Positions 41,882-63,309 of a DNA stretch of 64,000 nt are shown here, piece after piece. Both the position numbers and the translations under genes were made by a program. This DNA comes from Bdellovibrionota bacterium (GTDB taxonomy: Bacteria > Bdellovibrionota_G > JALEGL01 > DATDPG01): positions 59,570 to 123,569 of the forward strand of contig DATDPG010000019.1 of assembly GCA_035292885.1 (NCBI GenBank), read 5' to 3'. How positions within the stretch are numbered: the stretch's first letter is position 1; every line of letters starts with the position of its first letter. Under the pieces are notes generated by a model that was not told where the DNA came from, made no database searches, and worked only from the letters and a program-made list of their open reading frames with translations.

Positions 41882-42308
41882 CTTCTCCCTGAACGTGGAC
41901 TTCGTACGTGTCGAGCGGGTGAGGCGGCGGGCCGGCCACATTGTTTCCGTTCAAATCGTATTGACCGTTGTGACAAGCGCACCAAATGCGCTCCATGTCG
42001 GGCCGGTACTGGACGATGCAGTCGAGGTGCGTGCATTTTCCCGTGAACGCGGCGAAACTGCCGTCCTTCTTGCGGACCAGCAGCGCCGGTTTGTTTCCGA
42101 ACTTGCAGATTTTCCCGCTGTTCGGGGGAATCTCGGAGACCGCAGCGACTTTCGCCGAAGAGACTTTGGCTTCGGTCTCCGCGACAGGAGTGAGGTAGCG
42201 AACGATCGGATAAAAGACGGACCCCACCCAGGCGAAACCGCTGGCCCCTAAAAGGGTGTTCAAGAATCCGCGTCGGGAGGTTTCGGTCGAGCTTCGAATC
42301 GGTTTCAT
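41856..42308 (-). CDS. Rieske [2Fe-2S] protein, Tat signal
   Basis: SRRGFLNTLLGASG. CTHLDC...CACHNGQY Rieske boxes. Confidence 0.9.
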   Translation of the reverse strand: MKPIRSSTETSRRGFLNTLLGASGFAWVGSVFYPIVRYLTPVAETEAKVSSAKVAAVSEIPPNSGKICKFGNKPALLVRKKDGSFAAFTGKCTHLDCIVQYRPDMERIWCACHNGQYDLNGNNVAGPPPHPLDTYEVHVQGEDVYISLKA

Positions 42309-42448
42309 TGAATTACAGTAACGAGATTTCGCCCCAAGAAAATGGAGGAGATTTTAGAGTGTTCCCTTGCTTCAATCCAGTTTTGAGGTCGACGAAGCGG
42401 AGTTTCGCAGGATCGGAAAGGTCGACCATGATCCAAATCAGCTTGAAA

Positions 42449-42604
42449 TTACGACGAACGGTTGATTTTTAACCACCGGTCTCGGAGCGCGGGGTTATTT
42501 CTCCAGACCTCAAAGATCATCCTTCGGTATCCTTCGAGCCAAAGAATAATCTGTTCAGGCGTGAGTTTGGGTGTTCGTCCCCAGTCATGAGTTGTTTTAG
42601 GCAC
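42449..42604 (-). CDS. Possible 51-aa small ORF downstream of the NTase-fold gene (below track cutoff)
   Basis: GTG start overlapping the NTase stop. Hand translation gives MPKTTHDWGRTPKLTPEQIILWLEGYRRMIFEVWRNNPALRDRWLKINRSS. It resembles the small protein at 23509..23691. Confidence 0.25.
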   Translation of the reverse strand: MPKTTHDWGRTPKLTPEQIILWLEGYRRMIFEVWRNNPALRDRWLKINRSS

Positions 42605-43094
42605 TTTCTTGCCCTGTAAGTTTTCTCAATTCCGCTGCGTCGAAAAGGTCCTTGTCTCTGCCGGCTCTGTCCTTCATTTCAATCAGGTCCATTTTGCCGA
42701 TCACTCTAATTTTAATTCCAAAGGCATCGACCAACAATTGCCTGCCCGCAAGTTCCTGAAATGGCTTGGGTTCTTGTGAAAAGACATCGATGACTTCAAA
42801 TGGATTTCCCGGGTGAATGAAAGAGAAAACCATCATTCCCTTTTCCTCTATCCATTCTTTGCGTTTATGCGCATCGGCGAAATCTTTTGCATCAACCGGC
42901 AGGCGGGGCTTGAAACCAAGATGCGAGACCATTTCTACAAATGCCAGGACATTTTTGCGCTCAAGGTGCACGATGAGATCAAGATCCACGGTCGCTCGTT
43001 GGACCTGATGAAAATTCACGGCGAATCCGCCTGCGACGAGATACTCGATTTTTCTTCGGTCAAGCTCAATGAAAAGTTCTTTGTACGGAACCAT
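42597..43094 (-). CDS. Nucleotidyltransferase-fold protein (paralog of 22946..23512)
   Basis: LVAGGFAVNFHQVQRATVDLDLIV and VIGKMDLIEMKDRAGRDKDLFDAAEL. AT-richer than its flanks. Confidence 0.55.
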   Translation of the reverse strand: MVPYKELFIELDRRKIEYLVAGGFAVNFHQVQRATVDLDLIVHLERKNVLAFVEMVSHLGFKPRLPVDAKDFADAHKRKEWIEEKGMMVFSFIHPGNPFEVIDVFSQEPKPFQELAGRQLLVDAFGIKIRVIGKMDLIEMKDRAGRDKDLFDAAELRKLTGQESA

Positions 43095-43236
43095 CGTTCG
43101 ATACTGTAACGAATCTGGGTAGAAATTCCCATTCGTCGCCTTGGGAGGATGGCGAAGGCCTCATCGGCGTGTAAAACCGATCGGACGGCGTCCCGCGGAA
43201 TCAAAGACTTTCCAAGATTCTCTCTCTAAGTATGGG

Positions 43237-54211: not shown

Positions 54212-54217
54212 TTAAGC

Positions 54218-54378
54218 GTCCCGAGCCCGACATATCTTGATAGTCGGCCGCCGCTGCATCCCGGTTGGCTGCGTTGCTCCCCCTCGACGTACAGCTTTGC
54301 AAGTACGCCGTCGTCGTCGCGCCTTGCCAACCGGGCGCATCGGCGTCCTTTGTTATCAATCTATCTCGGGCTCGGGAC
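54218..54378 (+). mobile_element. 161-bp palindromic MITE-like element, copy A
   Basis: Terminal inverted repeats GTCCCGAGCCCGAcATAtcTTGATA / TATCAAtcTATcTCGGGCTCGGGAC (22/25 match; outer 13 bp perfect). Internal arms are also self-complementary. 152/161 identical (hand count, no gaps) to the reverse complement of 63143..63303. Confidence 0.7.
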
Positions 54379-54442
54379 GCTAGCGTTCCATAAGGGAACA
54401 CGGCGTTCTTTGCGGCGCCGGGTGGAATGTTATCATGCCGAT

Positions 54443-56827
54443 ATGCCCACCCGGCGCCGTCGTTTATCTCCTTCGAAATCGGCTCGTAAACGGCCTCCTC
54501 AGACTGAATCGAGTCGAGTCATTCAGCGCTATCTGCGCCGGTATCCGGGGCTCCGCGCCCGAATCATTCAGAATTTTCTCGTCCGCCTTCATTCCCAAGG
54601 GATCGTTTCGGTGGACGAAGTCTACCGGATTGCACTCGGGAAATCGGCGCTTCGGCAGCAGATCAAACACCGAGTCGCCATGAACATCGATACGGCCGTT
54701 CAATGGACGCGGACGGAACGGAACGCCGTATGGAAAACCGTTTTGTCGTACGCCGAGCGGCACTTTTCTCCGGAAGAAATTCACGATCTGGTCGGCGTGA
54801 CGGTCAAACGGGAAGAAGCGCAGAATCTTCAAGACATCGCCGGTCTTCCGGGAATTTCCTTCGAAATTCTTAAACGCAGGGTCGCGGATTTCTGCAAGCT
54901 TCCGCGGACCATCATTTCCCTGCCGCCTTCCGATCTGGTGGCGACCCGCGTCGCCCTCATGCGGCAGTTTGTCAGCGATCACATTGATTTTCTTACGGTC
55001 GCACGAAACTACGTCCAGGTGCGGGACCTGGACGTCGTCGCCCAGCGAATCATCGGTCCGAGGGAAGGAATGGGGCGGATCGGCGGGAAAGCGGCCGGCC
55101 TGCTTCTGGCCGACAAGATTTTACGCCAGCATTACCAGAACGCGGGAAGAGAGCCTCTGATGCCGCTCAAGACACCCGACTCATATTATTTGCGGTCCGA
55201 TTTGAACGACGAGTTCGTCCGCCGGAACGGCCTCATGGAATACGCGAGCCAGAAATACAAATCGCAGGAGGCGATCGAAGCCGATTACCCCCTGCTCCGG
55301 GAGCTTTTTCACGCCGGTTCATTCCCTCCCGAAGTCGTCTCCCGCATTCGAAAATTGCTGGAGAAACTCGGACCCACGCCGTTGATCGTCCGTTCCTCCA
55401 GTTTGTTGGAAGACAGCCTCGGCGCCGCGTTTTCCGGGAAATACCGGAGCATCTTTCTGGCGAATCAGGGCTCCCTTTCCAATCGACTGATTCGCTTTTT
55501 GAGCGCCGTAAAGGAGGTTTACGCGGGCGTGCTCTCGGCCGATCCACTGGTCTACCGGCGGGAGCGGGATCTAATCGACTACGACGAATTCATGGCGATT
55601 CTGATTCAACCGGTCGTGGGAAGGACGTATCGGCACTATTATTTTCCACTTTTCGCCGGCGTGGCGTTTTCGCGAAACGATTACTACCGGTGGGACCGCC
55701 GAATTCGCCGCGAGGACGGCTTGGTCCGCCTCGTCGCGGGGCTCGGCACACGCGCCGTGGACCGTGTCAGCGCGGAGTATCCGAGAATGATCGCCCTCAC
55801 GGTCCCGTCGCTCCGTCCCCAAGGGGACGTGGACGAGATCTGTCGCCAGTCTCAGCGCCGCGTGGATGTCGTGAATCTTAGAACGAACAGATTTGAAACA
55901 CTCAATTTTACCGACGCGATCGAGGCGGAACCCCCGCCGAATTTCGATCTGGTGGCTTCCATTGTAGAAGAGGAAGCCTTGCGACCGATCGTCGGAAATT
56001 TCGTGGATACCTCCCGACAATCGATCTGCCTGACGTTTGACAAATTGATTGAATCGACGCCGTTCGCGCCTCACATGCGTGAGGTGTTAAGCGTCTTGGA
56101 AAAGGGCTACGGATGCCCGGTGGACATCGAGTTCGCCAGCGATGGAAAAGATTTTTATCTGCTTCAATGCCGGCCGTTGGCGCAGAAAATCGAAGCTAGC
56201 CGTGTGCGCGTTCCGACGGACGTCGAGCCGAAGCGGGTTCTGTTCAACGCCCAGCGTGACGTGATGAACGGCATCGTGCGAAATATTGAATACATTGTTT
56301 ATGTTCCGGCCGAAGCGTACGACGACGTCTCTGATCTGACGACGAAACAGATGATCGGCCGCGTGGTGGGGCAGCTGAACCAGAAACTGCACGGCTCCAG
56401 ATTCATCTTGCTCGGTCCGGGACGCTGGGGATCCAACGACATCAATCTGGGCGTGCGCGTGAATTACGCCGACATTCGAAACAGCCGCGCTCTCATCGAG
56501 GTGGCTCATGAGAAGGACGGTTACGTTCCCGAAGTTTCGTTCGGCACACACTTCTTTCAAGATCTTGTGGAATCCGGAATCAGTTACCTGCCGCTCTATC
56601 CGGATGAGCCGGGCGGAATCTTCAATGCGGATTTTCTTCTGAATTCACCGAACCGCTTGCCGAAACTGTTGCCCAACCACAAGAGTTTTGCCCCGATAGT
56701 GCGGGCCATTCATGTCCCTGAAGTGGCGGAAGGCGAGTACGCCCATTTGCTGATGGACGGCGAGAATGAATTGGCGCTCTGTTATCTGGGCCCGATGCAG
56801 AGGGAAGAGGCGTCGACGCAGGCGTAG
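54443..56827 (+). CDS. PEP/pyruvate-binding (PEP synthase / PPDK N-terminal ATP-grasp-like) domain protein
   Basis: Start moved to MPTRRRR (the track ORF start at 54350 lies inside the repeat element). GRIGGKAAGLLLA and LIVRSSSLLEDSLGAAFSGKYRSIFL match the PPDK_N-type signature. I did not see a phospho-His swivel motif. Confidence 0.75.
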   Translation: MPTRRRRLSPSKSARKRPPQTESSRVIQRYLRRYPGLRARIIQNFLVRLHSQGIVSVDEVYRIALGKSALRQQIKHRVAMNIDTAVQWTRTERNAVWKTVLSYAERHFSPEEIHDLVGVTVKREEAQNLQDIAGLPGISFEILKRRVADFCKLPRTIISLPPSDLVATRVALMRQFVSDHIDFLTVARNYVQVRDLDVVAQRIIGPREGMGRIGGKAAGLLLADKILRQHYQNAGREPLMPLKTPDSYYLRSDLNDEFVRRNGLMEYASQKYKSQEAIEADYPLLRELFHAGSFPPEVVSRIRKLLEKLGPTPLIVRSSSLLEDSLGAAFSGKYRSIFLANQGSLSNRLIRFLSAVKEVYAGVLSADPLVYRRERDLIDYDEFMAILIQPVVGRTYRHYYFPLFAGVAFSRNDYYRWDRRIRREDGLVRLVAGLGTRAVDRVSAEYPRMIALTVPSLRPQGDVDEICRQSQRRVDVVNLRTNRFETLNFTDAIEAEPPPNFDLVASIVEEEALRPIVGNFVDTSRQSICLTFDKLIESTPFAPHMREVLSVLEKGYGCPVDIEFASDGKDFYLLQCRPLAQKIEASRVRVPTDVEPKRVLFNAQRDVMNGIVRNIEYIVYVPAEAYDDVSDLTTKQMIGRVVGQLNQKLHGSRFILLGPGRWGSNDINLGVRVNYADIRNSRALIEVAHEKDGYVPEVSFGTHFFQDLVESGISYLPLYPDEPGGIFNADFLLNSPNRLPKLLPNHKSFAPIVRAIHVPEVAEGEYAHLLMDGENELALCYLGPMQREEASTQA

Positions 56828-56828
56828 C
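56732..56828 (+). repeat. 97-bp direct repeat, copy 1 (authentic 3' end of the PEP-binding gene including its TAG)
   Basis: 92/97 identical (hand count) to 57486..57582. Confidence 0.9.
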
Positions 56829-56861
56829 GGCAAGCGTGGAGTTCGCGATCGGGAAACCCGG

Positions 56862-57143
56862 TCAGCTGATTTTTTCTTTCTCCGCCATCCGCCCGCTTAC
56901 AAACTTGTAAAGTACGCTTGAAATCAGCGTCTGATAAGGTATCCCTTCTTCCGCCGCCTTCACCCGAAGCCGCTCCAGCACCTGAGACGGAATTCTTATA
57001 TTCACCCTCTTGTCTTTGGCGAGCGTAGCGCGGGCGTATTTTTGGTATTTAGATTTTTCCCTTCTCAGTGAACGAACGGAACGCCATTCGTCTCGATCAT
57101 AAGAATCAAGAATCTCCTTCTCCTCTATATTTGGATGCTTCAT
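56862..57143 (-). CDS. brnA: BrnA-type (CopG/RHH) antitoxin
   Basis: RVNIRIPSQVLERLRVKAAEEGIPYQTLISSVLYKFVSG. 4-nt overlap with brnT. Confidence 0.8.
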   Translation of the reverse strand: MKHPNIEEKEILDSYDRDEWRSVRSLRREKSKYQKYARATLAKDKRVNIRIPSQVLERLRVKAAEEGIPYQTLISSVLYKFVSGRMAEKEKIS

Positions 57144-57421
57144 TTGCGTCCCTTTCGTATATATATTCGGGTAGCCTTACGACTCGGAATGATGGTTTTA
57201 AACACGATTTCTGCGCCCTTTTCTTCAAAGGGGACCAAACATGCGTAACCGTTGATATCGAGGACGAAAATTCGCTGAAAAGGGTACTTCGCCTTATTGG
57301 GATGTTCCAAGATATCGAGAACACCTCCTCTTTCAATGACCAAAACCGCTTCCTCGAAGGAAATTTCTCGTTGGCTCTTAAGGCTCGCATTCTTCCCCGG
57401 ATCCCACGTAAAAACCTTCAC
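57140..57421 (-). CDS. brnT: BrnT-type (DUF497) toxin
   Basis: MKVFTWDPGKNASLKSQREISFEEAVLVI... is the characteristic BrnT N-terminus. Confidence 0.85.
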   Translation of the reverse strand: MKVFTWDPGKNASLKSQREISFEEAVLVIERGGVLDILEHPNKAKYPFQRIFVLDINGYACLVPFEEKGAEIVFKTIIPSRKATRIYIRKGRK

Positions 57422-57485
57422 TGTTGCTAATTGTAAGACAATGTGTGCCTAACGTCAACAACACTCTGGGCTAGTCGTCGCAGCC

Positions 57486-57582
57486 GGCGAGTACGCCCAT
57501 TTGCTGATGGACGGCGAGAATGAATTGGCGCTCTGATATCTGGGCCCTGTGCAGAGGGAAGAGACGTCGACGCAGGCCTAGC
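57486..57582 (+). repeat. 97-bp direct repeat, copy 2 (non-coding relic of the gene 3' end)
   Basis: ggcgagtacgcccatttgctgatggacggcgagaatgaattggcgctctg... repeats 56732..56828 with 5 substitutions. Confidence 0.9.
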
Positions 57583-57651
57583 TGCAGGCTTGGACTGATT
57601 CAGATCATAGTAATTGTGCGTGCCGGCAATCATGATCCAGAATAGGAAATT

Positions 57652-58734
57652 ATGACCCAAATCCGAGCCTGGAAGTTCCAAAAAGCGGGGGAGCCGTTTT
57701 CGTTTGCGGAATCCGCCATGCCCAAACCGGCGCCGGGAGAAGTGTTGGTGCGAGTCGCGGGTTGCGGGGTTTGCCACACGGATCTCGGATACGTCTACGA
57801 CTCCGTTCGGACCGTCAAACCCCTTCCGCTGACGCTCGGTCACGAAATCAGCGGATTCGTGGAGGAGGTCGGCGCCGGGGCAAAAGAATGGATGGGAAAA
57901 GCGGTGATTATTCCGGCCATCCTTCCCTGCGGCGAATGTGATCTTTGCAAGAAGGGGAGACGATCGATCTGTCGGCGGCAGAAAATGCCTGGGAACCATA
58001 TCGACGGTGGTTTCGCAAGTCACATTGTTGTTCCCTCCCGTTTTCTGTGCGCCGTGCACGTTCGAAACGAAAATGAACATTTCGGCGATTCCGGCGTCAC
58101 GCTGAAGGAGCTCTCCGTCGTGGCGGATGCCGTTACCACGCCGTACATGGCGATTAAAAGGAGCGGCTTGGCAAAGGGCGATTTGGCGATCTTCGTCGGT
58201 GTCGGCGGAATTGGGGGTTTTGGTGTTCAGCTCGCCGCCGCTTTGGGCGCAACGGTTGTGGCCGTCGACATCTCGGACAAACGTCTTCAATTCATGAAGG
58301 AACATGGCGCCGAGGCCATTTTCAATTCGAAAGAGATCAACGGAAAGGAACTCCGAAGGGCGATCGGCGCGTTCGCGGCCGAACGAAAACTTCCGTCGTA
58401 CGAATGGAAGATTTTTGAAACCTCGGGGAGCGCCGCCGGGCAAGAACTAGCGTTTGGGCTCTTGACCTTCGGCGCTCATTTGGCCGTCGTCGGTTATACG
58501 ATGGAACAACCCGCCCTGCGCTTAAGCAATTTGATGGCGTATGACGCCCAAGCTTCGGGAAATTGGGGATGTGATCCGGTCTATTACCGGGAGGTGCTGG
58601 ATCTGGTAAAGAGCGGAAAGATCAAGCTTGCGCCGTTCGTGGAGCTGCACCCATTGAACCAGATCAACGAGATTTTCAACTGGGCGCACCACAAGAAACT
58701 GGAACGGCGCGCCGTTCTGATACCGGAAAAATAA
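57652..58734 (+). CDS. had: Zn-dependent alcohol-dehydrogenase-family enzyme, probable 6-hydroxycyclohex-1-ene-1-carbonyl-CoA dehydrogenase
   Basis: GEVLVRVAGCGVCHTDLGY, LTLGHEISGFV, structural-Zn cluster CGECDLCKKGRRSIC, and GVGGIGGFGVQ. The function is assigned from its context next to oah/dch/bcr. Confidence 0.65.
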   Translation: MTQIRAWKFQKAGEPFSFAESAMPKPAPGEVLVRVAGCGVCHTDLGYVYDSVRTVKPLPLTLGHEISGFVEEVGAGAKEWMGKAVIIPAILPCGECDLCKKGRRSICRRQKMPGNHIDGGFASHIVVPSRFLCAVHVRNENEHFGDSGVTLKELSVVADAVTTPYMAIKRSGLAKGDLAIFVGVGGIGGFGVQLAAALGATVVAVDISDKRLQFMKEHGAEAIFNSKEINGKELRRAIGAFAAERKLPSYEWKIFETSGSAAGQELAFGLLTFGAHLAVVGYTMEQPALRLSNLMAYDAQASGNWGCDPVYYREVLDLVKSGKIKLAPFVELHPLNQINEIFNWAHHKKLERRAVLIPEK

Positions 58735-58744
58735 AGGAGGACCG

Positions 58745-59845
58745 ATGTCGCCGTTTAAAGATCATGATTTGGTTCCGAATCCGAAGTTCACGCAGATCCT
58801 TTACGAATTAAAGCCGTGTCGGAACCCGAAAGGGTCGTCCGTTGCCGACCTTTTCAACGCGTGGATCACGCTGAACAATCCGGAGCAGTTCAATTCGTAC
58901 ACGACGCAGATGGTGAAAGAGACCATTTTGGCGTTTCGGACCGCGTCGAATCAGCGCAATGTGGTCGCGGTCGTCTTGACGGGCGCGGGCGAAAAAGCCT
59001 TCTGTACGGGGGGGAACACGAAGGAATACGCGGAGTACTACGCGGGCCAGCCGGACGAATATCGCCAATACATGAGGCTGTTCAACGACATGGTGACGAC
59101 GATTCTCCAGTGCGACAAGCCGGTGATCTGCCGGGTCAACGGCATGCGGATCGCCGGAGGCCAGGAAGTCGGCATGGCGTGTGACTTCTCGATCGCGAGC
59201 GACCGCGCAGTTTTCGGACAGGCCGGACCGAAGCACGGCTCCGTTCCGGACGGCGGCTCGACGGATTTCTTGCCTCTTTTCGTCGGCGTGGAGCGGGCGA
59301 TGGAAAGTTGCACGCTCTGCGAGACCTGGAGCGCCTATCAGGCGTATCGGCTCGGATTGATCACCGACGTCGTTCCGGTGCTGAAACGGAATGGAACGTT
59401 TATTTCGAACCCGGCGGTCATTACGGGCCGCTGGATCGATGAGGCCGGAAAGATCGTCTACGGCCAATTCAAGACGGGAGAGGACCGATCGAGCGCCGAA
59501 AAGATCGTTCGCGAATGCAAGGTGGATCTGTCGGCGCTCGATCGTGCGGTCGAAAGTATGTGCACGTCCCTTCTAATGACGATGCCGGGGTGCCTCTCCA
59601 AGACGCTCAGCTCCGTTCGAAAGCATAAGCTGGAACATTGGGACCGGAACCGAGAGACCAACCGCGACTGGCTCGGCCTGAACATGATGACCGAAGCGAA
59701 GGTCGGGTTCCGGGCGTTCAACGAAGGAACGAAGGAAAACCGCGAGGCCGATTTTATCGAGCTGCGCCGGAGACTTGCCCGCGGCGAGCGATGGAGCGAC
59801 ACGTTGGTCGAGGCGGTCCTCCCGTCGAAGAAGGAGAAGATTTAG
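58745..59845 (+). CDS. oah: Crotonase-superfamily enzyme, probable 6-oxocyclohex-1-ene-1-carbonyl-CoA hydrolase (Oah/BamA-like)
   Basis: 366 aa, long for a crotonase. VVLTGAGEKAFCTGGN, VNGMRIAGGQEVGMACDFSIA. Confidence 0.6.
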   Translation: MSPFKDHDLVPNPKFTQILYELKPCRNPKGSSVADLFNAWITLNNPEQFNSYTTQMVKETILAFRTASNQRNVVAVVLTGAGEKAFCTGGNTKEYAEYYAGQPDEYRQYMRLFNDMVTTILQCDKPVICRVNGMRIAGGQEVGMACDFSIASDRAVFGQAGPKHGSVPDGGSTDFLPLFVGVERAMESCTLCETWSAYQAYRLGLITDVVPVLKRNGTFISNPAVITGRWIDEAGKIVYGQFKTGEDRSSAEKIVRECKVDLSALDRAVESMCTSLLMTMPGCLSKTLSSVRKHKLEHWDRNRETNRDWLGLNMMTEAKVGFRAFNEGTKENREADFIELRRRLARGERWSDTLVEAVLPSKKEKI

Positions 59846-60616
59846 ATGGTCCCCTTCAAGAAGATCAAAGTCGACAAACTCTACGACGGCCAGGTTTGGT
59901 GGATTACGTTGAATGTTCCCAAGGGTAACGTTCTGGACCGGGAGATGATGTTGGAGATCGAAGACTCCGCGAGATCGGCCCGCATTCCGTCGGTGAAGGC
60001 GCTTGTTTTCGAGGGGGCGGGGGATCATTTCTCGTTCGGCGCCAGCGTGGCCGAACACACCAAAGAAGCGGCGCCGAGCATGCTGGCGGCGTTCCATCAA
60101 CTCTTCCGAACGTTGATCGATTCATCGAAACCTCTGGTTGCCGTCGTACGGGGTCAATGTCTCGGAGGAGGAATGGAATTGGCGACGTTTTGCCACTGGG
60201 TGTTCGCTTCCGAAAACGCCATGTTCGGCCAGCCCGAGATTCAGCTCGGCGTTTTTCCGCCGGTCGCATCGATCGTGCTTCCAGCCAAGGTCGGCCAGGC
60301 GGCCGCGGACGATCTCATCCTGACGGGTCGGTCGATTCCGGCGCGCGAAGCCAAGGAAATCGGCCTCATCACTTCCGTTTCCGGCGATCCAAAGGCGGAA
60401 GCGACGAACCTGCTCGACAAACAGATTCTCCCCAAGAGCGGTGCGGCGCTGGAATTCACCGTAAAAGCGAGCCGGTATGAATTTCATGAAGCCTTCCGCC
60501 GTGGAATCGAGCGGCTGGAGAAGACGTATGTTCGTGAATTGATGGAAACCGCCGACGCCAACGAGGGAATCGCATCCTTCCTGGAGAAACGGAAACCGGC
60601 CTGGAAAAATCGATGA
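59846..60616 (+). CDS. dch: Crotonase-superfamily enzyme, probable cyclohexa-1,5-diene-1-carbonyl-CoA hydratase
   Basis: The start abuts the upstream stop (TAGATG). LVFEGAGDHFSFGASVAEH, VVRGQCLGGGMELATFCH. Confidence 0.6.
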   Translation: MVPFKKIKVDKLYDGQVWWITLNVPKGNVLDREMMLEIEDSARSARIPSVKALVFEGAGDHFSFGASVAEHTKEAAPSMLAAFHQLFRTLIDSSKPLVAVVRGQCLGGGMELATFCHWVFASENAMFGQPEIQLGVFPPVASIVLPAKVGQAAADDLILTGRSIPAREAKEIGLITSVSGDPKAEATNLLDKQILPKSGAALEFTVKASRYEFHEAFRRGIERLEKTYVRELMETADANEGIASFLEKRKPAWKNR

Positions 60617-60624
60617 GGAATTCG

Positions 60625-60695
60625 GGGGACACACGACTGGACCCAAACTCCAATTGCTTCTCAAGAAGCCAATTCGGGTCCATACATGTGTCCCC
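60625..60695 (+). promoter_or_regulatory. 71-nt extended three-segment hairpin in the dch-bcrC spacer
   Basis: GGGGACACA/TGTGTCCCC (9 bp), TGGACCC/GGGTCCA (7 bp) and AATTGCTTCT/AGAAGC(C)AATT (10 bp with one bulge), nested. No U-tract follows. Confidence 0.5.
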
Positions 60696-60706
60696 TTAAT
60701 TAAGAG

Positions 60707-61870
60707 ATGACCGTCGAGCAGATCATCGGGCGCTGTCAGGTGCTCTACGACGATCTGGAATTCAAATACGTCCGAGAATGGAAATCGAAAAAAGCCGGGC
60801 GCAAAGCGGTGGGTTACATGCCGATCTATATCCCCCGGGAGCTGGTGCGGGCGGCCGGTATTCTTCCCGTCGGCCTGATGGGCGGGGGGGACCAGCTGGA
60901 AATCATCCGCGGAGATTCGTACTTTCAGTCATACATCTGCCACATTCCGCGAAGCACGATCGAACTGGGTCTCCTCAAGAGATTCGATGACCTCGATGGT
61001 TTGATCTTTCCGAGCACGTGCGACGTCATCCGAAACCTGTCGGGGATGTGGAAGCTTCTGTTTCCCGACCGGTACGTGAAATATTTTGATGTTCCGCAGA
61101 ATTTCGACCGAAATACGGCGGGAACGTATTACCGCCACGAGCTTCAGACGCTGCAAACGGATTTCGAACGGTTGTCCGGACAAGAGATTTCGGCGGAAGG
61201 ACTTCGAAAGGCGATCCGGCTCTATAACGAGAACCGGCGCTTGATTCGGGAGCTGTACGATCTTCGCTGCGAGCGGCCCTGGCTCGTTCCAACGACCGAG
61301 AGCTACCTGCTCCTTCGAGCGGGAAATCTCCTGGACGTCGAAGAGCACAATCGAATGCTGGCGGACTACCTCCGAGCCGTCATTCGCGTCGACCGCCGTC
61401 CTCTGGACAACAGCCGGGTCGTGATCCGGGGCGTTTTCTGCGAGCAGCCGCCGCTCAACCTGATCAAGACCTTGGAACGTTCGGGCTGTTACATCGTGGA
61501 AGACGATTTCGTCCTGGTCTCCCGCTGGATTCGAGGAGACATCCCCACCGAGGGGGACCCGCTCGAGAATCTGGTTCGCGCCTTTTTGGAGGACAGCGTG
61601 GAAACCGCCGTTCGGTACGACAGCGCGGACGAAAAAGGAACCCGATTGATCGAAATCGTCCGAAAGCGAAAAGCGGACGGCGTGATTTTTTGTGCGCCCA
61701 GTTTCTGCGATCCGGCACTTCTGGACCAGCCGATGTTGACGGCGGCTCTGGAAAAAGAGGAGATTCCTTATACGCACTTCAAGTTCGCCGAGAACACCGG
61801 GCAGTTTCAGGTCATCCGGGAGCAGGCCGGAACCTTTTCGGACTCCGTGAAACTTTGGGGGACCCTATGA
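60707..61870 (+). CDS. bcrC: Benzoyl-CoA reductase / 2-hydroxyacyl-CoA dehydratase family subunit (BcrC/BadD-like)
   Basis: 387 aa. KAVGYMPIYIPRELVRAAGILPVGLMG...YICHIPRSTIE...FPSTCDVIRN is an HGD-D-type fold signature. Confidence 0.7.
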   Translation: MTVEQIIGRCQVLYDDLEFKYVREWKSKKAGRKAVGYMPIYIPRELVRAAGILPVGLMGGGDQLEIIRGDSYFQSYICHIPRSTIELGLLKRFDDLDGLIFPSTCDVIRNLSGMWKLLFPDRYVKYFDVPQNFDRNTAGTYYRHELQTLQTDFERLSGQEISAEGLRKAIRLYNENRRLIRELYDLRCERPWLVPTTESYLLLRAGNLLDVEEHNRMLADYLRAVIRVDRRPLDNSRVVIRGVFCEQPPLNLIKTLERSGCYIVEDDFVLVSRWIRGDIPTEGDPLENLVRAFLEDSVETAVRYDSADEKGTRLIEIVRKRKADGVIFCAPSFCDPALLDQPMLTAALEKEEIPYTHFKFAENTGQFQVIREQAGTFSDSVKLWGTL

Positions 61871-63141
61871 GCGGAAAAATTCAAAAAGAACAGAGCATGG
61901 TCGTTCAAAAAGAAATGATCGCCGACTATTACAGCCGTCTTTCCCGGGCGCACGACGAAGGGAAGAAGGTCGTCTACACGTTTGTCCCCGGAAATTTGAT
62001 TGAATTGATCGACGCGCTCGGATTTTTGCCCGGTCTACCCGAGATCAACGCTCTTCAATCGGGGATGCGCGGCAAGTCGGCGGGGTACATCGCCGAGGCG
62101 GAAAAGGCGGGACATTCGGAAGATGTCTGCACGTACGTCAAGTGCGACATCGGGATGAAAAAATCGGGAAACATCGGTCCGACCGGCGAGAAAATTCCCG
62201 AACCGGATCTGTTGCTCCTGTCGTACACCGGCTGCTTCACCTTCATGAAATGGTTCGAGCTTCTCCGGAAGGAATACAACTGCCCGGTGGCGATGCTCCA
62301 CGTTCCCTACCAAGCGGACGGCGTCATCACCGACAACATGCGCAACTACGTCGTCGACCAGTTAAAAAACAACATTATCCCGACCATGGAAAAGGTGGTC
62401 GGTCGAAAGCTCGATCTGGACGAATTGTCGGCCCGCATGGCTCGCTCGGCGAAGGCGGAAGACGATTTGGTAAGCGTGTTCCAGTCGGCCAAGAAACGGC
62501 CGTCGCCGATCGACGCGTATTTCGGGGGCGTCTATTATATCGGGCCGATCTTCACGGCGTTCCGGGGCAGCGAAGCGTGCCAGACCTATTACCGCGTTCT
62601 CCGCGGTGAAGTGGAAGAGCGGATCGAGGAGCACAAAGGGCCGGTGACGCCCGAAGGGGACATTTCGCAGGAAAAATACCGTCTCGTCGTAGAGGGGCCT
62701 CCCAATTGGACCAACTTCCGGGAGTTCTGGAAGATGTTTTACGATGAGGGGGCGGTCGTTGTCGCCTCGACCTATACGAAAGTCGGGGGCGTCTACGACC
62801 GAGGCTTCCGGCACGATCCGAATCGTCCGCTCGAATCGCTCGCCGAGTACTGTCTCGGCTGTTACACGAACTTGAATCTCCCGTCGCGGATTTCGATGCT
62901 GGAAAAATATGTGAAGGAGTACGACGCGGACGGCTTTCTCATCAATTCGGTCAAGAGCTGCAATTCCTTCTCGGCCGGACAGCTTTTGATTTTGAGGGAA
63001 CTCGAAGCCCGCACGGGAAAGGCGGGAGCGTTCATCGAGACGGACCTCGTCGACCCCCGGTACTTCTCGGCGTCGAACGTGAAGACTCGACTTGAGTCGT
63101 ACTTTCGAATGATCGACATGAAAAGGGCAAGGGCAGCCTAG
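61867..63141 (+). CDS. bcrB: Benzoyl-CoA reductase / 2-hydroxyacyl-CoA dehydratase family subunit (BcrB/BadE-like)
   Basis: Real start MSGKIQKEQ in an ATGA overlap with the bcrC stop (the track ORF start 61690 is an extension). KKVVYTFVPGNLIELIDALGFLPGLPE...CTYVKCDIG...SYTGCFTFMKW...VKSCNSF. Confidence 0.7.
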   Translation: MSGKIQKEQSMVVQKEMIADYYSRLSRAHDEGKKVVYTFVPGNLIELIDALGFLPGLPEINALQSGMRGKSAGYIAEAEKAGHSEDVCTYVKCDIGMKKSGNIGPTGEKIPEPDLLLLSYTGCFTFMKWFELLRKEYNCPVAMLHVPYQADGVITDNMRNYVVDQLKNNIIPTMEKVVGRKLDLDELSARMARSAKAEDDLVSVFQSAKKRPSPIDAYFGGVYYIGPIFTAFRGSEACQTYYRVLRGEVEERIEEHKGPVTPEGDISQEKYRLVVEGPPNWTNFREFWKMFYDEGAVVVASTYTKVGGVYDRGFRHDPNRPLESLAEYCLGCYTNLNLPSRISMLEKYVKEYDADGFLINSVKSCNSFSAGQLLILRELEARTGKAGAFIETDLVDPRYFSASNVKTRLESYFRMIDMKRARAA

Positions 63142-63142
63142 T

Positions 63143-63303
63143 GTCCCGAGCCCGAAATAGATTGATAACAAAGGTCGCCGATGCGCCCGGATGGCAAGGC
63201 GCGACGACGAAGGCGTACTTGCAAAGCTGTACGTCGAGGAGGAGCAACGCAGCCAGCCGGGATGCAGCGGAGGCCGTCTATCAAGATATGTCGGGCTCGG
63301 GGC
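63143..63303 (-). mobile_element. 161-bp palindromic MITE-like element, copy B (inverted relative to copy A)
   Basis: The reverse complement aligns gap-free with 54218..54378 (9 mismatches). Fills the bcrB-bcrA spacer. Confidence 0.7.
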
Positions 63304-63309
63304 ACTAAG

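Follow-up and report, generated by a model that had tools for sequence, protein, structure and literature searches.

How does a toxin-antitoxin pair come to lie between two copies of the end of a host gene, when no mobility gene is found beside it? The question is raised by a 64,000-nt stretch of contig DATDPG010000019.1 (positions 59,570 to 123,569 of the forward strand; assembly GCA_035292885.1), part of a metagenome-assembled genome (MAG) labelled Bdellovibrionota. This whole stretch is referred to as the window and its own numbering is used. In it, the 3' end of a phosphoenolpyruvate (PEP)/pyruvate-binding gene recurs 754 nt downstream of its first occurrence, and a brnT-brnA toxin-antitoxin (TA) pair occupies the space between the two copies. 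The explanation to which we give somewhat better than even credence is that a horizontally acquired brnTA cassette inserted at the junction of the PEP-binding gene with the had operon that follows it, with a long target duplication and without a dedicated recombinase. The features on which this explanation turns are the following.

54611..56827, plus strand: PEP/pyruvate-binding (PPDK_N) gene, 738 aa (Pfam PF01326, E = 2.4e-49)
56732..56844, plus strand: repeat copy A, the functional gene 3' end (96 nt including the TAG) and 17 nt downstream
56845..57485, minus strand: unique insert, 641 bp, GC 47%, consisting of 17 nt, brnA, brnT and a 64-nt upstream region
56862..57143, minus strand: brnA antitoxin, 93 aa, ribbon-helix-helix/CopG type (by Pfam and gene order)
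57140..57421, minus strand: brnT toxin, 93 aa, DUF497/BrnT, GTG start (by Pfam, homologues and alignment)
57486..57598, plus strand: repeat copy B, a pseudo 3' end directly upstream of had
57652..58734, plus strand: had, 6-hydroxycyclohex-1-ene-1-carbonyl-CoA dehydrogenase (NCBIfam TIGR03201, 498 bits for a cut-off of 339)

The repeat was first described in a first-pass annotation of this DNA as the last 97 bp of the PEP-binding gene, stop codon included, recurring with five substitutions. Direct comparison of the 97-nt windows 56732-56828 and 57486-57582 bears this out, the substitutions being at offsets 50, 62, 63, 78 and 92. What was missed is that the similarity extends about 16 nt past the TAG, where 12 of 16 positions are identical, which brings the full repeat to about 113 nt (copy A 56732-56844, copy B 57486-57598). 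For the same reason the 657 bp that had been given for the DNA between the copies is correct by the 97-bp coordinates and falls to 641 bp when the additional 16 nt are assigned to the repeat. Aligned with each other by BLAST, the two flanks match over 109 nt at 92.7% identity (E = 9e-43). In total nine mismatches separate copies A and B over the ~113 nt (~8% divergence) and these are unevenly spread, with none in the 50 nt of the conserved coding part, five in the 47 nt of the unconserved tail and four in the 16 nt of spacer. The left edge of the repeat is sharp, 50 identical bases starting abruptly, and the right edge fades. The 64 kb contain no second long direct repeat, and the copies are only two. 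Base for base, six independent metagenome contigs agree at this locus; four of them belong to ENA assemblies (ERZ27254795, ERZ27254861, ERZ27254863 and ERZ27254865) and two to JGI assemblies (3300025324 and 3300002124).

It was also confirmed that the repeated sequence is the genuine 3' terminus of the upstream gene: the last 31 codons and the stop of the PEP-binding gene fall inside copy A. The repeated part begins at GEYAHLLMDGENELALCYLGP, and its motif hMDGE..A.CYL is kept in the two nearest homologues (70% and 63% identical), in neither of which the tail of the protein beyond this motif is conserved. In copy B an in-frame TGA (57534-57536) stands where copy A has a TGT Cys codon; because this nonsense change hits a Cys that is conserved in the two nearest homologues, copy A is considered the working end. 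The other coding changes of copy B are M>V, A>T and two synonymous ones, followed by the 16 nt at 75% identity. Judged by these changes, copy B is a dead, decaying pseudo-end.

The insert differs from its surroundings in composition. Its GC content of 0.471 compares with a window mean of 0.560 (sd 0.025, 641-bp windows) and falls in the lowest 0.5%, and GC at third codon positions (GC3) is 0.49 for brnT and 0.51 for brnA versus 0.64-0.77 for 13 other genes, such that the AT-richness reported for the cassette stands by both measures. It also stands that only a minus-strand brnT-brnA pair is found between the copies. Little DNA is spare around the operon: 17 nt past brnA and, on the brnT side, ~24 nt beyond the promoter-operator, since ~40 of the 64 nt before brnT make up the conserved promoter-operator of the family. 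No terminal inverted repeats were found at the ends of the insert. On composition and layout, the insert is a foreign, complete and self-contained BrnTA operon with its own promoter:

57430..57458, minus strand: predicted brnTA promoter TTGACG-N17-TACAAT, 10 of 12 consensus matches

BrnT matches Pfam PF04365 with E = 2.5e-6 and 28.1 bits, which is under the gathering score of 34.5, and it has no NCBIfam match. It has 677 homologues at E <= 1e-5, most of them assigned to PF04365 or named 'BrnT family toxin' (best identity 67%), it retains all 24 invariant columns of a 30-sequence alignment and it gives a weak full-length match to PDB 7vd7, 'toxin'. BrnA scores 37.1 bits with Pfam CopG_antitoxin (cut-off 28), 24.2 bits with BrnA_antitoxin, under the cut-off of 26.1, and E = 5e-6 with NCBIfam BrnA, likewise under the cut-off. 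The start of brnA overlaps the stop of brnT by 4 nt (ATGA), and a brnA homologue directly follows brnT in 79 of 80 related loci. By these matches and this gene order the pair belongs to the BrnT/BrnA type II TA family, with a toxin that is RNase-type by family. The predicted promoter ends 8 nt before the GTG, which makes it near-leaderless, and overlaps an operator-like motif, GGCACACA. A comparison of the 90 nt before brnT in 77 BrnTA loci from many phyla showed, in the ~40 nt nearest to brnT, a conserved TTGACA/TTGCCA, AAAGGCACACA and ..GTG.TA.AAT; this conservation stops abruptly at about -40 (the window counterpart is 57422-57462), and the distance from the end of the -10 box to the start codon is 7-10 nt. 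The spacing suggests that the mRNA of the brnT toxin is leaderless or near-leaderless.

Signs of a carrier were looked for in and around the insert. Compared with Pfam, 34 open reading frames (ORFs) of the window yielded no integrase, transposase or other mobility gene, ORFs below ~200 aa outside 46.9-63.3 kb being unscreened; the gene annotation of the matching contig, which covers 46.9-63.3 kb, contains no integrase or transposase, and none lies between the repeats. Folding z-scores of the repeat were -0.6 and -1.6 for the plus strand and +0.9 and +1.4 for the minus strand, compared with -5.5 and -6.5 for real attC-like repeats beside BrnTA cassettes in two other loci (L011 and L076), and an attC or hairpin nature of the repeat was rejected on these scores. 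The att-like cores that had been proposed as a check were searched for at the repeat boundaries and none was found, nor any attC-type structure. An Rfam scan of 54-64 kb identified no family. The viral contig collection contains no copy of the repeat, and a phage origin of the cassette was dropped because the phage records hold no BrnT relative. On plasmids, BrnT relatives are only ~45% identical. A DNA transposon or miniature inverted-repeat transposable element (MITE) was rejected as well, as the insert has no inverted repeats and the duplication measures ~113 nt instead of 2-15 bp; the earlier remark that it far exceeds transposase-type target duplications is correct.

According to the explanation that we favour, the 641-bp promoter-toxin-antitoxin cassette would have entered where the PEP-binding gene borders on the had operon and would have left ~113 bp of target on both sides, that is, the last 31 codons, the stop and ~16 nt of spacer. 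By the duplication, the upstream gene would keep its conserved C-terminus in copy A and had would keep its native upstream DNA in the form of copy B and 53 nt, such that the insertion would be harmless and could be tolerated. The empty site reconstructed in this manner, consisting of the gene end, a 69-nt spacer and had, is plausible and hypothetical. Precise excision of the cassette would result from recombination between the repeats. Such deletants would be selected against by the post-segregational killing that TA pairs exert, and cells that lose the pair would be expected to be poisoned by the longer-lived toxin, which would hold the structure in place. We infer the direction of the event (insertion, not loss), the stabilising role of the TA pair and the molecular route.

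Two routes can be envisaged. A staggered or resected double-strand break could have been filled in around a captured linear fragment. Alternatively, a single crossover, or a join that was homologous on one side and illegitimate on the other, could have brought in the cassette together with a donor copy of the gene end. The second copy would thus either have been made in place or have arrived with the cassette from a related donor. The gradient of mismatches resembles that between two alleles each evolving under coding selection, or the outcome of gene conversion in the 5' half, and, with nine differences in all, it mildly favours the second route. Homology-facilitated illegitimate recombination in natural transformation, reportedly described by de Vries and Wackernagel in 2002, combines a single homologous anchor with an illegitimate join and needs no recombinase of its own, and so could bring a donor gene end plus cassette; it usually deletes recipient DNA, however, whereas here a duplication is seen. 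The junction at 57485/57486 has no clear microhomology. The first-pass annotation had pointed to integration of a circular or cassette DNA by recombination at the gene end. Its foreign cassette with a long duplication holds; the circle is unproven, with neither att cores nor a copy in the viral collection, and its integration by recombination at the gene end may be one of the two candidate routes.

Several observations weigh against this explanation. An empty site is absent from every collection searched, which means that the insertion is inferred and not observed. A single-copy site in related genomes had been suggested as a check, and it was sought by exact-protein look-ups of BrnA, BrnT and Had, by means of PEP-binding homologues with their loci and the PEP-binding 90% cluster, and by scanning JGI metagenomes and viral contigs for a 41-nt pattern of the repeat that allowed for codon degeneracy. 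All these searches returned only the same occupied locus; in the JGI metagenomes, the degenerate pattern found the same contig and nothing else. All contigs that encode an identical Had are occupied. The other suggested check, the same cassette between other flanks, gave no recent second copy, the closest BrnT being at most 67% identical. The lineage stands isolated in the databases: the nearest PEP-binding homologues, at 70% and 63%, both have different downstream genes, the 63% homologue retaining the upstream GDH-PEP synteny. The nearest had clusters (66% identity; loci L107 and L108) keep the order had-oah-...-dch-...-HGD-D and are preceded by an Rrf2 regulator gene, which the present locus lacks. 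Because these clusters follow the Rrf2 gene and not a PEP-binding gene, an ancestral PEP-had adjacency was rejected and the junction is considered lineage-specific, which makes its history more complex. Furthermore, simple decay in place would leave 50 nt free of mismatches with P = 0.005-0.05 only, depending on the constraint on copy A.

Other BrnTA loci add to these points. The survey comprised 80 loci of this BrnTA subfamily from GTDB species genomes of many phyla, and direct repeats of at least 40 bits were scored around 69 operons and around 304 control placements in the same loci. Repeats bracket 7 of the 69 operons versus 9 of the 304 controls, a modest enrichment (odds ratio 3.7, p = 0.016), and about half of the bracketed cases concern attC or array repeats. 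More than two repeat copies occur in L011 and L048 and, from a wider 600-nt scan and hence outside the 7 of 69, in L072 and L077. A 96-nt hairpin repeat is found in L076, L009 and L040 each have two repeat copies that are non-coding, without structure and of 78-84% identity, and the repeats of L027 and L067 involve gene fragments (rfbB-like in L027). Among 17 contigs with a BrnT identical to each other (P0168), the loci tested have no flanking repeat, and the second repeat copy of L009 is absent from its orthologue L022. Long repeats as part of the BrnTA unit were dropped as an idea, since they are occasional, heterogeneous and absent from the P0168 loci tested.

The survey yielded further observations on the subfamily. 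L009 and L022, from Thermodesulfobacteriota MAGs, are orthologous BrnTA loci with 88% identity along 1.35 kb; a 58-76-nt stretch of upstream non-coding sequence recurs in L009 3' of brnA, beside a hemW-like fragment, and the brnA of L009 is truncated. From such comparisons the flanks of TA cassettes appear prone to rearrangement. L011 (Acidobacteriota) contains eight attC-like repeats with GCCTAAC...GTTAGGC cores, at positions 475, 704, 1322, 1792, 2255, 2886, 3576 and 4174. Integron-type BrnTA loci are L011, L021, L038, L055 and L048, several with an R' core ~48 nt before brnT. Since the subfamily is found in many phyla, on plasmids and in integron arrays it is considered mobile and, by its sequence contexts, it is a frequent integron cassette that has been widely transferred.

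Of the rival explanations, it is unlikely, in our view, that the two copies reflect two unrelated events, in which the TA pair came to lie after the PEP-binding gene and the had block was separately recombined in from a relative, copy B being an island-edge fragment that starts 96 nt inside the PEP-gene end of that relative. Synteny does break 3' of the PEP-binding gene in every comparison, the Rrf2 gene upstream of the nearest had clusters implies that the had block moved in this lineage, the divergence gradient resembles two alleles each under coding selection, and gene fragments lie beside BrnTA elsewhere (rfbB-like in L027, hemW-like in L009). Yet two independent breakpoints would have to match both ends of the 641-bp cassette, and the rare PEP-had adjacency would have to be present in the donor already; in GC and GC3 the had block does not differ from the rest of the window, and the 16 nt past each stop are still similar, which better fits one duplicated target. 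As another rival, the structure would be a relic and the repeats the attL and attR of an integrase-borne element (a prophage, an integrative and conjugative element (ICE) or an integrative and mobilizable element) that targeted the 3' end of the PEP-binding gene, brought a surrogate for it and was later deleted except for the TA pair, as in a cis-mobilizable element (CIME). Known integrative elements carry a surrogate 3' end for the gene they target, for instance e14 and phage 21 at icd, tRNA-targeting islands and ICE-derived CIMEs. The window resembles these in that the direct repeat is a 3' end including the stop, with one copy that keeps the gene intact and functional and one displaced, and in that a few percent divergence lies beside an identical 50-nt block, as expected of an attP-borne surrogate end and a crossover core; TA pairs are, moreover, typical survivors of decaying elements. 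Unlike those cases no element gene was found, neither an integrase nor another among the screened ORFs of the 64 kb, and the element would be 641 bp, equal to one TA operon. The tight bracketing by 17 nt and 64 nt would require two deletions that end almost exactly at att sites, no viral contig carries the repeat and no phage record has a BrnT relative, and 113 nt is possible but long for att identity. A relic is accordingly given a low probability.

Little is left for an integron gene cassette with attC-like repeats, which we regard as very improbable. The window pair does resemble BrnTA integron cassettes, being of the same subfamily, sharing the promoter-operator and having cassette boundaries that are about as tight; the subfamily occurs in attC arrays such as that of L011, and in integrons consecutive attC sites flank the operon as direct repeats. 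Unlike attC sites, which are structured, present in many copies and non-coding for the host, the window repeat lacks structure, has two copies and consists of conserved host coding sequence at a gene end, and no intI-like gene is among the ORFs screened. Its coding nature and lack of fold effectively refute the integron reading. BrnTA pairs are also carried on Acinetobacter plasmids by pdif (XerC/D) modules, which have 28-bp sites in inverted orientation. There, as here, BrnTA is a discrete small module bounded by repeats; unlike pdif sites the window repeats are direct, measure 113 nt and belong to a host gene, and the insert has no inverted repeats. Chance similarity or an assembly artefact, finally, has nothing more in its favour than the source, a MAG. 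The first-pass annotation had itself named an artefactual repeat as ground for abandoning its reading; the identical structure in six contigs from different samples and two assembly pipelines excludes an assembly artefact, and with the E-value of the repeat and its nine diagnostic mismatches the probability left to either is negligible.

The insertion with long target duplication that we favour has a named precedent, which had been overlooked in the first-pass annotation. 'Insertion with long target duplication' was named for restriction-modification (R-M) gene complexes (Nobusato et al. 2000, Gene 259:99; Furuta, Abe & Kobayashi 2010, PMC2853133). R-M units without mobility genes show target duplications from ~30 to several hundred bp (PMC2853133; PMC3874152), and their flanking repeats correspond to a single-copy host sequence in strains with an empty site (PMC2853133). 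The mechanism is unexplained, and a link with double-strand breaks has been suggested (PMC2853133). Furuta et al. (2010) required a complete addiction module without a mobility gene, a length below 20 kb, flanking repeats above 30 bp that are not multi-copy, and an empty site; three of these four are found at the window locus and for the fourth, the empty site, the collections hold no close enough relative. As with R-M units, we see a small addiction unit of atypical composition without a detected mobility gene, flanked by direct repeats of ordinary host sequence that allow excision or amplification. Unlike R-M units, the cargo is a type II TA pair with an RNase-type toxin that does not cut DNA, hence the proposed connection with self-inflicted DNA breaks does not extend to it. 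The published R-M cases also differ in that they were proven with empty sites and have near-identical repeats (e.g. 44/46), whereas here the divergence is 8% and shows a gradient. The locus is best described as a TA-cargo example of a known, mechanistically unexplained insertion class, a pattern that is rarely noted for TA pairs.

The spread between chromosomes of TA pairs without a mobility gene is poorly understood. A wider claim, that type II TA cassettes such as BrnTA move autonomously by the R-M-type long-target-duplication route, we regard as doubtful. If it were true, long repeats would give TA cassettes reversible excision or amplification, and the route would be independent of DNA-cutting cargo, being general to addiction modules or to the capture of short DNA at breaks. 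A TA case, with its non-cutting cargo, would in any event constrain mechanistic ideas on the long-target-duplication pattern, and it illustrates that an insertion inside a gene end can leave undamaged both that gene and the regulatory DNA of the operon behind it. Being one case for which no empty site is available, it has the value of an anecdote and does not amount to a demonstration, and the pattern is not general across the BrnTA family.

Some features of the neighbouring genes complete the description of the locus. The NCBI call of the PEP-binding gene has 794 aa and starts at 54444, and the protein is identical to HLG18492.1 (MAG TPA Bdellovibrionota bacterium). Downstream of it a possible terminator occupies the first bases of the insert, overlaps the brnA stop and would serve the PEP-binding gene:

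56847..56863, plus strand: terminator-like GC hairpin GATCGGGAAACCCGGTC followed by a T-run (consensus match only)

JGI contig Ga0209640_10040269 (our loci L003 and L089, which are the same) matches window 55708-58177 without a difference, beyond which its sequence is that of an unrelated GC-rich sigma-54 activator gene. This switch, at locus position 2470 (window 55708), truncates the PEP-binding gene to 368 aa and, by sequence comparison, would reflect either chimeric assembly or a rearrangement at strain level within the PEP-binding gene. On the other side of the insert, had is the first gene of a had-oah-dch-bcr-like benzoyl-CoA pathway block with two HGD-D family genes after dch, and oah scores 560 bits with NCBIfam TIGR03200, above the cut-off. 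Window 57652-63141 is a block for the reduction and cleavage of the benzoyl-CoA ring, in a MAG that bears the label Bdellovibrionota, and its GC and GC3 match the rest of the window. Inspection by eye and a promoter-motif scan found no convincing sigma-54 or sigma-70 promoter for had inside copy B.

A MITE-like element of ~165 nt is present in two copies that are 93% identical, at 54215-54383 (plus strand) and, inverted, at 63138-63306, with 13-bp terminal inverted repeats GTCCCGAGCCCGA and TCGGGCTCGGGAC. The first copy lies between the GDH and PEP-binding genes and the second just past the second HGD-D gene; the pair therefore brackets the PEP-TA-had-oah-dch-bcr-like block in inverted orientation, and the contig of locus L001 ends inside the second copy. 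The suggestion that the duplication is of similar age to these copies carries no weight, resting only on similar percentages (8% and 7%). A second AT-rich islet was observed at window 42300-43200, between the Rieske/cytochrome b genes and a multihaem cytochrome gene, with a GC of ~0.46 that is as low as that of the TA cassette. It contains two minus-strand ORFs, 42597-43094 (165 aa) and 42449-42604 (51 aa), which have no Pfam or NCBIfam match, and there are no repeats at its flanks. Judging from its composition and gene content, this islet may be another small foreign two-gene module.

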